Origin: Eledone cirrhosa
Lineage: Eukaryota
Direction: 5' to 3'
Length of the DNA: 64,000 nucleotides
Assembly (NCBI GenBank): GCA_964016885.1
Contig: CAXHJY010000277.1
Location: forward strand, 1-64,000
Positions 3,370 to 22,663 of this stretch are shown in pieces. The notes beneath the pieces were generated by a model that was not told the origin of the DNA, made no database searches, and saw only the letters and a program-made list of their open reading frames with translations. The position numbers and the translations under genes are program-made. Positions within the stretch are counted from its first letter, which is position 1, and each line of letters begins with the position of its first letter.

Positions 3370-3549
3370 GATGAGATTCTACAGGACTAGAACTGTTTCA
3401 TTCATTAGAAATCATCAGATTCCTGATGATTTCTAATGAATGAAACAGTTCTAGTCCTGTAGAATCTCATCTATATTAAAACTGTTATACTCTGCTATGT
3501 ATTGAGTACCTTACTTACTGTGGTTACCTCCGATTCAACCCGGAATAAC
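3365..3549 (+). mobile_element. Family E hammerhead fold-back element
   Basis: Perfect inverted arms 3365-3418 / 3423-3476 plus tail ending CCCGGAATAAC, in (TA)n. Confidence 0.8.
3417..3467 (+). ncRNA. Type I hammerhead ribozyme motif (family E)
   Basis: AGATTC-CTGATGA-T-TTC-TAAT-GAA-T-GAAA-CAG-TTCTAGTC-CTG-TA-GAATCT; predicted cleavage after GUA at 3461. Confidence 0.88.
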
Positions 3550-5274: not shown

Positions 5275-5466
5275 CGGTGGATTGGCAGTATCAGTAGAGG
5301 GTCGGACGCCGTGCTTTGACGCATAGAGTTACGTCTCTTTATGATCTGAGTTCAAATCCTGCCGAGGTTAACTTTACCTTTCATCCTTACGGGGTCGATA
5401 AAATAAAGTACCAGTAATGTACTGGGGTATTTGCTGGCCGTGTGCCAAATGTAGAAACAATTATTA
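5275..5466 (+). mobile_element. tRNA-derived SINE, full length (main family of this window)
   Basis: A-box-like TGGCAGTATCAGT, B box GAGTTCAAATCC, core CCTTTCATCCTTACGGGGTCGATAAAATAAAGTACCAG, (ATT)n tail. Confidence 0.9.
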
Positions 5467-5476
5467 TTATTATTAC

Positions 5477-5663
5477 TGGATTGGCAGTATCGGTAGAGCG
5501 TCGGACGCCATGCTTTGACGCATAGAGTTTCGGCCCTTGCCATTCTGAGTTCAAATCCCGCCGAGGTTAACTTTGCTTTCATCCTTACGGGGTCGATAAA
5601 ATAAAGTACCAGTAATGCACTGGGGTATTTGCTGGCCGTCTGCCAAATGTAGAAGCAATTATT
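5477..5663 (+). mobile_element. tRNA-derived SINE, full length
   Basis: Same as previous; inserted head-to-tail after the ATT tail. Confidence 0.9.
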
Positions 5664-8549: not shown

Positions 8550-8583
<34 letters not shown>

Positions 8584-8585
<2 letters not shown>

Positions 8586-8786
8586 ACGAAGGAGTTGTGG
8601 TAAGGAACCAGATGGACCATAACGCACCAGAGTACTCAATACTTAGTGTAGTAGAGTGGGTAATAGGAAAATGTATGACCCCGACGGCAGAGCAAAGCCG
8701 TTTCGACGGCTAATTCTGGACTAAATTTAGTCCAGAAATACCCGTCGAAACGGCTTGAGCTCTGCCGTCGGGGTCATACATTTTCA
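8584..8786 (-). mobile_element. Family A fold-back element
   Basis: Long arm 8584-8724, turn GGACTAAATTTAGTCC, short arm to 8786; (TA)n flanks. Confidence 0.85.
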
Positions 8787-9189: not shown

Positions 9190-9520
9190 TCGTCGGGTAT
9201 CGTAGAGACGGGAGTTACCAAGAATGTTGTACAATGTCGATACACAAAGCCGAAGTACCGGATATACATTGACAGGGATATCACTTCGGGGTACACCGTA
9301 AAGTTACACCTACATCTTAATTTAGTAGATAGAGCTCAGCGGTTCTTTATCTCTCTGTGTGTGTGGTGCCTGTATGTGTATATATATTTATATATTTATT
9401 TATTTATATATATATAGATATTTATTTATATATGTATATATGTATGTATATATGGGCTTGAATACAAACACACACGCACATATATGCTTGTATATAAACA
9501 CACACACACACATAACATAT

Positions 9521-9657
9521 ATAGCGAGGGTAAAGTGGTAAGGAACCAGGTGGACCATAACGCACCAAAGTACTCAATACTTAGGGTAGTAGAGTGGGTA
9601 ATAGGAGTAAGTAAGACCCCGACGGCTGAGCTCAAGCCGTTTCGACGGCTAATTCTG
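9521..9657 (-). mobile_element. Family A element, single arm
   Basis: GTGGTAAGGAACCAG.TGGACCATAACGCACC...GACCCCGACGGCTGAGCTCAAGCCGTTTCGACGGCTAATTCTG. Confidence 0.85.
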
Positions 9658-9764
9658 TACATATATATATACTTCATACAGCTTGCACTATGGGACATGC
9701 CCTTCATTAGCTGTTGACTGGAGATCTCAACGATTTGGGGTATGTATATATATATGTATATATA

Positions 9765-9968
9765 TAGGAACGTGTAAGACCCCGACGGCTGAGCTCAAGC
9801 CGTTTCGACGGCTAATTCTGGACTAAAAATTAGTCCAGAATTAGCCGTCGAAATGGCTTGAGCTCAGCCGTCGGGGTCTTACTCGTTCCTATTACCCACT
9901 CTACTACCCTAAGTATTGAGTACTTAGGTGCGTTATGGTCCACCTGGTTCCTTACCACATTTCCTTCG

Positions 9969-9971
<3 letters not shown>
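9765..9971 (+). mobile_element. Family A fold-back element
   Basis: Short arm, turn GGACTAAAAATTAGTCC, long arm; (TA)n flanks. Confidence 0.85.
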
Positions 9972-10007
<36 letters not shown>

Positions 10008-10210
10008 TATGTACACGTACATACATATATGTATACAGACGTACAGTAGTATGTATATATATATACATACATGCACACATATATATATGTACGTATGGAT
10101 TCACCGAACATTTATTATAATGCTCGGTGTGTTTGTAAACAAACGTCCCGTATTAAGCCGTACAGTGTCCAGCAACCATCGTTGCTCGTTTGTTCAACAC
10201 TGACAAAGGA

Positions 10211-10253
10211 ACACTGTACTAGTTTCAAGCTTATTAGCTATCGTCAGCAACGT
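10211..10253 (-). ncRNA. Minimal type I hammerhead ribozyme motif (family F)
   Basis: Minus strand: ACGTTG-CTGACGA-T-AGCT-AATA-AGCT-T-GAAA-CTAG-TA-CAGTGT. Confidence 0.85.
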
Positions 10254-10372
10254 ATAGCTTCCTGCCAGATCGTTGAACGTATATACTTACCTTATGCATA
10301 TTAACGGCTGAGTAGCCCAATTTGCATATCGAGTGGGTTAATCGGCCGGGTGCACCGAAAACGATAAACGGA

Positions 10373-10556
10373 AATAATTGTTTCTACTTTTGGCGCAAGG
10401 CCAGCAATTATCCCAGTATATTACTGGTACTTTATTTTATCGACCCCGTAAGGATGAAAGGCAAAGTTAACCTCGGCGGGATTTGAACTCAGATCGTAAA
10501 GGGACGTAACTATGCTGGAAAGCATGTCCGACATTCTACCGATACTGCCAACTCAC
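10373..10556 (-). mobile_element. tRNA-derived SINE inserted in family F element
   Basis: Reverse complement of 5275-5466 type. Confidence 0.9.
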
Positions 10557-10945
10557 AATGAAACGAAATTTCATTTCCCACTCTTAGTATGGCTGTTACT
10601 TAAATATAAGTATGTACACGTACATACATATATGTATACAGACGTACAGTAGTATGTATATATATATATACATACATGCACACATATATATATGTACGTA
10701 TGGATTCACCGAACATTTATGTGAATCCATACGTACATATATATATATATATATGCATGTATGTATATATATATATATATACATAATACTGTATGTCTGT
10801 ATACATATAATATATAATATATATATATATATTTATATATAATATATATATATATTTATATATAATATATATATATATTTATATATTGGAATGTCTTTGA
10901 AACTTCATGGATATTTACGGAATTACAAATATGTAAATATGTATG

Positions 10946-12075: not shown

Positions 12076-12400
12076 TGGTCACGATGATATTGGCGGGGGT
12101 AGTGATAGTGGCCATAATGTGTGAGGGGGTGGGGGTATGCTTGTGGTGATAGTGGTGGCAGTGTTGGTGGAGGGGACAGGTCACTACCCGTCCGCCCCTG
12201 CCCACAAACTAGGCAACCCTCCAGTTCCCAGCCAAAGCCGCTCCCTGCGGGTCTTCAGCCCAGCTGACACGGTCGGAAGTTCCACCTGTTTTACTATGTT
12301 GACGCGTCATGACAGCGCATGCGCTGCTTCCAGTCCACTGCCCCCTATCTGAGATTGCTAAACTCATTTGGACATACACACTTATATACATATATATATA

Positions 12401-12687
12401 TAGGAACGAGTAGGACCCCAACGGCTGAGCTCAAGCCGTTTCGACGGCTAATTCTGTCCAGAATTAGCCGTCGAAACGGCTTGAGCTCAGCCGTCGGGGT
12501 CCTACTCGTTCCTATTACCCACTCTACTACCCTAAGTATTGAGTACTTTGGTGCGTTATAGTCCACCTGGTTCCTTACCACATTTCCTAACGGCTTGAGC
12601 TCGTTCCTATTACCCACTCTACTACCTTAAGTATTGAGTACTTTGGTGCGTTATGGTCCACCTAGTTCCTTACCACATTTCCTTCGT

Positions 12688-12689
<2 letters not shown>
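12401..12689 (+). mobile_element. Family A fold-back element with duplicated tail
   Basis: Arms 12401-12456 / 12457-12589; second, internally deleted tail 12590-12689. Confidence 0.85.
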
Positions 12690-12747
<58 letters not shown>

Positions 12748-13100: not shown

Positions 13101-13147
13101 CTTCTACAGGACTAGTACTGTTTCATTCAGATGAAATCTTCAGGAAG
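13101..13147 (-). ncRNA. Type I hammerhead ribozyme motif (family E)
   Basis: Minus strand: CTTC-CTGAAGA-T-TTC-ATCT-GAA-T-GAAA-CAG-TACTAGTC-CTG-TA-GAAG. Confidence 0.85.
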
Positions 13148-13172
13148 ATTTCATCTGAATGAAACAGTACTA

Positions 13173-13219
13173 CTTCCTGAAGATTTCATCTGAATGAAAC
13201 AGTACTAGTCCTGTAGAAG
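13173..13219 (+). ncRNA. Type I hammerhead ribozyme motif (family E)
   Basis: CTTC-CTGAAGA-T-TTC-ATCT-GAA-T-GAAA-CAG-TACTAGTC-CTG-TA-GAAG. Confidence 0.85.
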
Positions 13220-17404: not shown

Positions 17405-17444
<40 letters not shown>

Positions 17445-17446
<2 letters not shown>

Positions 17447-18007
17447 AACGGAAAATATGAAAGGAAATTTCATTTCCCACTCTTAGTACGGCTGTTACTT
17501 AAATATAAGTATGTATACGTACATACATATATGTATACAGACGTAAAGTAGTATGTATATATATATATATATATATATACATACTACTGTACGTCTGTAT
17601 ACATATATGTATGTACGTGTACATACTTATATTTAAGTAACAGCCGTACTAAGAGTGGGAAATGAAATTTCATTTCATTTTTTCCGTCTATCGTTTTCGG
17701 TGCACCAGGCCGATTAACCCACTCGATATGAAAATTAGGCTGCTCAGCCGTTAATATGCATAAGGAAAGTATATACTTTCGGACGTTCAATCATCTGGCA
17801 GGAAGCTATACGTTGCTGACGATAGCTAATAAGCTTGAAACTAGTACAGCGTGCCTTTGTCAGTGTTGAACAAACGAGCAACGGTGGTTGCTAGACACTA
17901 CGGCTTAATACGGGATGTTTGTTTACAAACACACCGAGCATTATAATAAATGTTCGGTGAATCCATAAGTACATGTATGTGTATATATATATACATACTA
18001 TTGCACG

Positions 18008-18015
<8 letters not shown>
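17445..18015 (+). mobile_element. Family F retrozyme-like element (inverted arm plus 414-nt terminally redundant unit)
   Basis: 17445-17555 inverted relative to 17582-17687; 17582-17601 recurs at 17996-18015; HHR inside. Confidence 0.8.
17810..17852 (+). ncRNA. Minimal type I hammerhead ribozyme motif (family F)
   Basis: ACGTTG-CTGACGA-T-AGCT-AATA-AGCT-T-GAAA-CTAG-TA-CAGCGT; palindromic ACTAGT; predicted cleavage after 17846. Confidence 0.88.
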
Positions 18016-18054
<39 letters not shown>

Positions 18055-18401: not shown

Positions 18402-18440
18402 ATATATATATATATATATGATGACCTCAACTTGATTTCA

Positions 18441-18628
18441 AATAATTGTTTCTACTTTTGGCACAAGACCAGCAATTACCCAGTGCATTACTGGTACTTT
18501 ATTTTATCGACCCCGTCAGGATGAAAGGCAAAGTTAACCTCGGCGGGATTTTAACTCAGATCATAAAGGGAGGTAACTCTATGCTTCAAAGCATGGCGTC
18601 CGACCCTCTACCGATACTGCCAATCCAC
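18441..18628 (-). mobile_element. tRNA-derived SINE
   Basis: Reverse complement of main SINE. Confidence 0.9.
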
Positions 18629-18664
18629 AATGCTATCGCTTGATAGTTAAGAAGATGTCACCTA

Positions 18665-18961
18665 TCAAGCGATGCCTGTGTTTGAAGCTTTTTGTAAGTG
18701 AGGAAAGGCTTTGCATGGGGCCAACCCCACTCTCTGAACATCGAATACATTTACCCCAAAAGAAGAACTGGTCTCTACATCATTGGATACAAACGAAGTC
18801 GCAGGTTTTACATCAGAGTGACCTTCTCCTTGAGGGATGTCTTAATGAAGACTAGGAGTCTCCCGCTCCACAAAAATAAACATCTTTATTGGATGGCCGT
18901 AGACTCTCCTGAGTTCCTCCGCCCTTGAACGGCTTTTGTGTTTCATCCCGCAGGTTGTCGA
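18665..18961 (-). mobile_element. Diverged partial copy of the RTE-5'UTR-like element
   Basis: ATGCCTGTG..GAAGCTTTT, CCCACTCTCT, AAAAGAAGAAC, ACATCATTGGATAC blocks shared with 47590-48199. Confidence 0.65.
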
Positions 18962-19284
18962 AAAGGCAAAGTTAACCTCATCGGGATTTTGAACTCAGAA
19001 CGTAAAGGGCCGTGTCTCTATGCTGCAAAACATGGTGTCCGACTCTCTACCGATACTGCCCGGTTTCTAATTTAGGCATAAGGCCAGCAATTTGAAAGGG
19101 AGGAGGAAATTCTATTAAATCGACCACAGTTCGTTACTGGTACTTTATTTGAACGACCCCGTAAGGATGAAAGGCAAAGCTAACCCTGGCGGGATTTTGA
19201 ACATCAGAACGTAAAGGGCTGTATCTCTATGCCGCAAAGCCTGTTGTCCGATGCTCTACTAATTCTACTGCCAATCCACCGCCC
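18962..19284 (-). mobile_element. Two adjacent SINE copies (partial plus older full length)
   Basis: SINE head 18962-19040, then 19043-19284. Confidence 0.85.
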
Positions 19285-19476
19285 TTTATACGCAGTCAGT
19301 TTCCTCTATCTACTAAACTAAGACCTGCCAAATGTAATGTCATCACACTAGCTACAGAGGTAGGAGTAATAGCTTAAAGGTGAGAGGGTTGGGTGTAGGA
19401 ATATGTGGAACTACTTTCTAGTCCTTTTCCCTGTGGATATCGGCGGAATAATTGAAGAGATATAGTAGTTTAAGTA

Positions 19477-19664
19477 GTGGATTGGCAGTATCGGTAGAGG
19501 GTCGGACGCCATGCTTTGACGCATAGAGTTACGGCCCTTGCCATTCTGAGTTCAAATCCCACCGAGGTTACCTTTCCCTTTCCTCCTTACAGGGTCGATA
19601 AAATAAAGTACCAGTAATGCACTGGGTATTTGCTGGCCTTGTGCCAAAACTAGAAACAATTATT
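19477..19664 (+). mobile_element. tRNA-derived SINE
   Basis: Full head, core and tail. Confidence 0.9.
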
Positions 19665-22322: not shown

Positions 22323-22356
<34 letters not shown>

Positions 22357-22359
<3 letters not shown>

Positions 22360-22530
22360 CGTACAGTAGTATGTGTATATATGCATACATGCACACATGT
22401 TTACAAAACAAACCGAGCATTATAATAAATGTTCGGTAAACCCATACGTACATATATATGAGTGTGCATGTATGTATGCATATACATACTACTGTACGTC
22501 TGTATACATATACGTATGTACGTATACATA
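22357..22530. mobile_element. Family F fragment with fold-back
   Basis: AGACGTACAGTAGTATG arm, ACCGAGCATTATAATAAATGTTCGGT block, inverted TACTACTGTACGTCTG. Confidence 0.65.
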
Positions 22531-22663
22531 GTTATATTTATATATATATACACACACGCACATAAACAATACACACACACATTTTATACCACTCTCAAGT
22601 ATGAAACTAAAAACCATATCATTTGTACTGCTTCTGTTTTTTTTGTTCTCTGTTCATTTATTC

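Follow-up and report, generated by a model that had tools for sequence, protein, structure and literature searches.

A dispersed 422-nt hammerhead repeat of Eledone cirrhosa with paired Penelope-type ends and a possible circular RNA template

The insertion at 9970-10809 of the window, that is, of the whole 64,000-nt stretch of Eledone cirrhosa DNA analyzed here, is an aged, damaged copy of an abundant and still young 422-nt repeat that carries a predicted self-cutting motif. We call it copy 1. The explanation that we consider best, and to which we give fair credence, is that this non-coding hammerhead repeat was inserted in trans by the enzyme of a Penelope-like element (PLE), and that its greater-than-unit length came from more than one turn around a unit-length RNA circle. 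A Penelope-type mechanism with two start sites, acting on a template of repeated units, is highly probable from our analysis. Fixed paired ends, an inverted arm and a (TA)n target are hallmarks of PLEs, found here in a non-coding unit of the retrozyme type; the family is a retrozyme-type, non-autonomous PLE dependant and belongs to a class that is already known.

Anatomy of copy 1

The recurrence of 10003-10115 at 10606-10720, on which the first-pass annotation had built its account, is real: 9998-10115 aligns with 10601-10720 at 97.5% identity over 120 nt (E = 1e-53), the only differences being a single mismatch and a TA insertion of 2 nt. The two segments are spaced 603 nt from start to start. 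A SINE does interrupt copy 1, although measured against the SINE-free copy at 17552-18054 its length is 181 nt and not the 184 bp first given; the periodicity likewise stands, but with a value of 422 nt (603 minus 181) in place of about 419 nt. The youngest units in the genome are exactly 422 nt long, the same as the period of copy 1. Throughout, the unit is numbered u1 to u422, with u1 as the base just 3' of the predicted hammerhead cut.

Along the window, copy 1 opens with a (TA)n run at the 3' end of its direct arm (9970-10002), which is likely the target site and is common to a different repeat family just to the left. On the minus strand there follow the terminal copy of the repeated segment, u102-u214 (10003-10115), where the 3' end of the arm at 9998-10003 corresponds to the u219 start site of the family; u1-u101 (10116-10216), immediately 3' of the predicted cleavage site; a minimal type I hammerhead (10211-10253), with its core at 10247-10217 and the predicted cut between 10217 and 10216; u265-u385 (10254-10374), containing the u275 start site of the upstream unit; a 181-bp tRNA-type SINE with A- and B-box-like motifs (10375-10555), inserted at u264; u215-u264 (10556-10605), joined seamlessly at u214/u215, as in tandem arrays; and the second copy of u102-u214 (10606-10720), with the 5' end of the direct arm at u102. 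In the sense of the element, the direct arm runs from u102 through the SINE at u264 and the hammerhead to the u219 end in (TA)n.

The earlier claim of one hammerhead-like motif per unit was borne out by a pattern match, which placed the motif of copy 1 at 10247-10217 on the minus strand. An inverted arm is also present, u113-u191 on the plus strand (10721-10809); described at first as following the direct arm, it in fact lies 5' of it in the element sense, head-to-head. It begins at 10721 (u113), stops short of both u219 and u275, matches to about 10809 (u191) and then fades into TA repeats, within which it has likely been eroded.

Copy 2 (17444-18054) has the anatomy of copy 1 without the SINE, with its hammerhead core at 17816-17846, a minus-strand arm (17444-17603) that ends at u275 and a plus-strand arm (17552-18054) that ends near u219. 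Because copy 2 is free of the SINE, that of copy 1 is likely a later insertion. A short two-armed piece of the family at 22333-22540, comprising u76-u219 and a short inverted arm, is without a hammerhead.

Compared with the youngest unit, copy 1 has changes at 13 of 420 positions, among them u4 in helix I. Having one hammerhead, it cannot release a monomer, and its single motif together with the helix I change suggests that it is likely inert. Taken alone, copy 1 is an ordinary member of its family; since it crosses the cut site only once, a circular and a tandem RNA are indistinguishable from this copy.

Other repeats in the window

The (TA)n run of copy 1 is shared with a second short family at 9517-9976, which likewise has a head-to-head layout with fixed ends. 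Further pieces of that family lie at 8579-8779, 12400-12694, 28260-28679, 42671-43119, 57536-57744, 60361-60561 and 61341-61507; it also adjoins a sister family of the 422-nt repeat at locus L214, and the hammerhead pattern gave no match in it. A second family with minimal hammerheads occurs at 3418-3423, 13143-13177, 28827-29025, 36479 and 60065, often as opposite-strand pairs. With 93-95% identity to repeats in L209, L213 and L217, which are loci from the GIY-YIG search described below, its members are likely pLTR fragments of an autonomous PLE family. In addition, about 20 pieces of the same tRNA-type SINE are scattered across the window, for instance at 5282-5663, 18440-19664, 33570-33994, 46897-47080 and 61666-62970.

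The family across the genome

A 276-nt query yielded at least 1331 candidate family matches in the 3.0-Gb genome. This query spanned the cut site; a second, unbiased sample was drawn with u21-u110 only. With the query itself left out, the cut site is crossed by 25 of 29 unbiased arms; the other 4 stop at u10-u19. Inserts range from less than one to about nine units, those of 2-9 units being common, and tandem arrays of 18 to more than 24 units are also present. The crossing of the cut and the multi-unit inserts uphold the earlier proposal that reverse transcription went past one unit on an RNA of repeated units; as for the form of that RNA, the youngest inserts favor a circle over a tandem transcript.

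The 3' ends of 100 arms at 68 loci fall at u275 (n = 51), at u219 (n = 39) or elsewhere (n = 10), and the 5' ends are scattered over the unit. The 90 arms with ends at these fixed sites, which lie 219 and 275 nt beyond the cut, mostly terminate in (TA)n, and TATA occurs within the next 10 nt in 79 of them, which marks an AT-rich or microsatellite target. Any target-site duplications, which in animal non-LTR retrozymes exceed 4 bp when they occur, would be masked by the (TA)n in which the inserts end. RAD-seq reads, whose depth is dominated by restriction sites and the sister family, were kept out of the end counts. The first-pass annotation had asked whether genomic copies are circularly permuted; the 3' ends do cluster at two fixed positions, yet a circle is compatible with this, since the Penelope reverse transcriptase (RT) begins synthesis inside its template (PMC11167929).

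A 5'-truncated, head-to-head partner arm is found at 32 of the 68 loci. Both ends are canonical in 24 pairs, of which 23 have one arm at each site (u219 and u275), and in the other 8 pairs one end or both are non-canonical. A further 11 of 11 pairs obey the same rule, bringing the total to 34 of 35 against an expected fraction of 0.49 (P = 6e-10). The arms of a pair also share their haplotype: the u47 marker is concordant in 20 of 23 pairs, and shared derived alleles number 45/364 within loci versus 271/10707 between loci. Arms are not nested in 7 of the 32 pairs. Raw DNA reads from two other runs contain both head-to-tail and opposite-strand joints (1156 and 903 reads at the main joint), so the arrangement is not an assembly artifact. 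The layout of copy 1 is the normal anatomy of the family and not a local duplication.

Satellite-length arrays of the unit are located at L096-L097 (G000:C11, 3.29-3.30 Mb), L103-L109 (C28, 110 Mb), L112-L113 (C28, 45 Mb), L148, L151 and L172-L173. The C11 array, of about 30 units, still has its canonical end at u219 and a partner arm at u273, and these ends suggest that satellites are seeded by single insertions. The sister family at L214:6576-8001 has a unit of about 510 nt, 77-82% identical, with the same hammerhead build and an inverted arm plus tandem; it may outnumber the 422-nt family, as its letters dominate the RAD reads. Sequencing runs labeled with other organisms hold 0.2-0.3 of the sampled words of the unit, a hint of possible relatives in other species.

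Hammerhead motif and predicted RNA fold

Every tandem unit of the family contains a type I hammerhead, as judged from core conservation and from the presence of helices I and II in the predicted circular fold. Each of the 14 invariant core positions is retained in at least 96% of about 305 unit rows. Searches at Rfam gathering thresholds returned no match anywhere in the window, the hammerhead scoring below them, and the call consequently rests on the pattern match and core conservation. By eye, the motif looks minimal. It has a U.U at the base of helix II, a pair also reported for an axolotl retrozyme (PMC7229834), and its helix III is the palindromic ACUAGU. A palindromic helix III build is said to require a second hammerhead (PMC4209133), and the ACUAGU build is predicted to need a dimer. 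In copy 1, a C>T change at u4 weakens helix I, with a predicted duplex of -0.4 versus -5.2 kcal/mol.

At 422 nt and a GC content of 0.38, the unit falls within the retrozyme range of about 150-450 nt and GC below 50%. Folded as a predicted circle, the youngest unit reaches -141.7 kcal/mol with 70% of its bases paired (z = -8.8 versus 40 shuffles); u1-25 pairs with u351-391, and a hairpin lies between the two start sites. In a four-sequence alignment that includes the sister family, two-sided changes are seen at 8 of 130 predicted pairs, one of which belongs to helix I, and the L214 sister family, about 78% identical, retains the predicted fold. Coming from four sequences and two lineages, these pair changes across the fold lend it modest support. 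When 56-nt hammerhead segments were folded in isolation by minimum free energy, no signal emerged (z between about 0 and -0.6; the third segment missed the hammerhead).

Penelope-type mobilization and the search for a helper

The 422-nt repeat was likely mobilized in trans by the enzyme of a PLE, a helper that our analysis infers. A purified Penelope-like protein in vitro is described as using two adjacent internal starts and as cutting and extending both strands at AT-rich targets (PMC11167929), and inverted 5' copies, a one-end tail and a (TA)n bias are on record for PLEs (PMC8557442, PMC3846280). Furthermore, a 2026 preprint makes the case that animal retrozymes derive from PLEs as non-autonomous elements (bioRxiv 10.64898/2026.07.22.740005). 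The family matches this profile in that its tail is at one end only, with PLE-type fixed 3' ends at two adjacent internal sites.

Neither the unit nor its mapped arms contain an open reading frame for an RT or GIY-YIG domain. The genome holds 10,596 GIY-YIG candidates. Among 46 loci sampled from them, none was a helper with ends homologous to those of the family; these loci showed only nested family copies and TA-run matches. Seven long frames at GIY-YIG loci were scanned: six match RT, and four of those six also match GIY-YIG. Long open frames with RT matches are found at L204:4309-7122, L205:1988-4519 and L206:1775-5062 (938, 844 and 1096 aa, respectively), and these represent candidate active PLEs.

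The inverted arm is best read as the product of a second priming event and not of circling. Two other origins were considered and rejected. Fold-back or self-priming is not a general source of inverted arms: it is excluded for the 7 pairs whose arms are not nested, and the arms of L144 are not mirror copies. L1-type twin priming with collision was rejected because 5' ends are not located at the start site of the partner arm.

A circular or a tandem template

If the template was a circle, every unit of an insert should be a copy of one sequence, whereas a tandem transcript would transmit unit-to-unit differences. Typing covered 22 young loci (45.5 kb), with target-junction columns and segments more than 3% diverged excluded; the loci were chosen by their likeness to subfamily-marker queries, so only changes outside the queries were counted. 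Of these inserts, 17 are uniform and 5 have partly shared variants. None of the 12 youngest has any, and singletons of one arm are not repeated in the other. At L230, two private changes occur in all units of both arms, and at L227 one private change occurs in all four segments. An exact genome scan for one of the L230 changes returned 17 matches: 8 lie within L230, and the L230 haplotype was found at none of the 9 located elsewhere. Four unlinked inserts contribute 15 units, 9 of which are letter-identical, TA runs included. As judged from these variants, the youngest inserts probably derive from one repeatedly copied unit, a circle in the form of a covalent or nicked monomer, and not from an uncleaved tandem transcript.

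Less probable, though it carries real weight, is that the template was a linear read-through of a tandem locus, uncleaved or partly cleaved, primed at u219 and u275 in the same Penelope-type manner. Arrays of 18 to more than 24 units exist that could be transcribed in this way, and inserts with mixed units are known (L110, L144, L146, L169, L111 and L153; among the young ones, L110, L144, L146, L149 and L169). At L144 and L111, the mixed variants are common to both arms, as a heterogeneous linear template predicts. There is also a mild surplus of 5' ends just beyond the cut, with 13 at u2-u20 against 5.4 expected (P = 0.004; 0.08 when corrected for 21 bins), a count reached after 4 of 17 ends initially placed at u1-20 were re-called as crossing the site; this excess fits cleaved or linear 5' ends, but it equally fits a stall in the terminal helix. 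On the other hand, a linear template requires a large number of distinct donor arrays, each homogeneous and fixed for private changes of its own, and donor searches found no such array for L230 or L144. The arrays sampled are old and heterogeneous, and with an average of 26 singletons per 4 units, their sequences indicate that they cannot be the donors of the young inserts. The one-arm singletons of the youngest inserts also speak against such a template. A homogeneous donor array could nevertheless be missing from the assembly, since contig C991 starts within a young arm.

At L169:3234-5488, one unit among units of ancestral type has the u377 change that is fixed in four other inserts; this unit is a possible donor, but it carries a change that those four lack. 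Two further comparisons did not discriminate: the ratio of partly shared to singleton variants, 0.10 in dispersed arms versus 0.15 in arrays, is not clearly lower in the former and failed to separate them, and the strand bias of singletons (15 G>T versus 9 C>A) was too weak to use.

Against a circle, published work shows that the PLE RT in vitro worked mostly on unprocessed RNA and did not depend on hammerhead cleavage (PMC11167929), that minimal hammerheads are weak cleavers (PMC4209133), and that 8 of 9 Xenopus dimers were without cleavage (bioRxiv 10.64898/2026.07.22.740005). Both main templates, the circle and the linear tandem, may operate.

It is improbable that multimers arose without a circle, by an RT that jumped end to end between separately cleaved linear monomers. 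Such jumping would account for the crossing of the cut site, for the stops near u1-u20 and for mixed units, including the single variant unit in L169; however, random jumps should mix haplotypes, yet 17 of the 22 young inserts are uniform, and the one mixed unit of L110 switches haplotype mid-unit and not at the cut. As for the 113-nt repeat being a target-site duplication, a local DNA duplication (the outcome that the first-pass annotation had set against its own reading) or an assembly artifact, the richness of the repeated segment in TA runs and the DNA-level expansion of long arrays, with their many partly shared variants, speak for it, but unlinked loci whose flanks differ contain the same unit and joint, and both joint types appear in the raw reads, which refutes it for the family and makes it most improbable.

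Proposed mechanism

In the circular-template reading, loci with at least two units would be transcribed, and paired minimal hammerheads would excise a monomer, which would be closed by a host ligase or held shut by its own 25-bp terminal helix. A GIY-YIG/RT protein would then cut both strands of a (TA)n run, the target seen in the inserts. Both DNA ends would prime cDNA inside one template, at u219 and u275, the observed paired ends, which flank the predicted hairpin. Each cDNA would continue through the hammerhead joint, which the arms do cross, for a variable number of laps around the putative circle, and the two cDNAs would be joined in the head-to-head arrangement observed. Copy 1 would be a 1.3-lap product that acquired its SINE later.

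Significance

Hammerhead circles have been hypothesized as RT templates since 2014 (PMC4209133, PMC7229834), and the origin of tandem and inverted PLE insertions has been described as still to be explained (PMC8557442). The one-sided tail itself is already known. In the main texts of the open-access papers searched, we found neither paired ends of the 219/275 type nor private variants present in all units for a retrozyme. The paired start sites, the one-haplotype arms and the insertion-private changes fixed in all units look like new genomic evidence on mechanism.

More tentatively, and with somewhat less than even confidence, the inserts may be a recent record of rolling-circle target-primed reverse transcription in an animal germline, in which a Penelope dimer working on a single 422-nt, ribozyme-made RNA circle used both cut DNA ends as primers, at two sites to either side of one hairpin, and ran up to nine laps, laid down as two head-to-head arms with changes unique to that RNA fixed in every unit. 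If true, this rolling-circle reading would explain the tandem and inverted structure of PLEs together with their one-sided tail, and would show how new satellites are seeded. The family links a unit of the retrozyme type with the chemistry of two start sites that has been measured for a PLE in vitro. In its near-identical young inserts, private variants distinguish a circular from a linear template, which makes a published idea testable, and the family supplies a short, defined RNA for assays.

Comparison with known systems

Animal non-LTR retrozymes, as described (PMC7229834; bioRxiv 10.64898/2026.07.22.740005), resemble the 422-nt family in having a non-coding tandem unit of a few hundred nt with one type I hammerhead per unit, a GC content below 50%, a highly self-paired predicted circle, a range from monomers to long arrays, and co-occurrence with PLEs. 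In contrast to those accounts, the ribozyme of the 422-nt family is of a minimal, dimer-type build, its circular RNA and cleavage are predictions here, and its dispersed copies show fixed paired RT starts and head-to-head arms.

Similarly, the family shares with EN+ PLEs, as reported for Poseidon of Anolis (PMC11167929), Adineta Penelope (PMC3846280) and Naiad/Chlamys (PMC8557442), partial tandems, 5' truncation, an inverted 5' copy, a tail at one end, two adjacent internal RT starts, AT-rich or (TA)n targets and a minimal hammerhead. It differs from them in being without an open reading frame, in a tail of 56 nt and not the 30-40 nt given for those elements, and in that a homologous autonomous partner is absent from the 46 loci examined. 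Its arms, often multi-unit and not nested, speak against the self-priming reading of inverted arms given in PMC3846280. Finally, the non-autonomous Chlamys elements, such as MRC1 (PMC8557442), are likewise non-coding PLE dependants with multicopy head-to-tail insertions; by the same account they differ in being algal, mostly without hammerheads, and similar at their 3' ends to known helpers.
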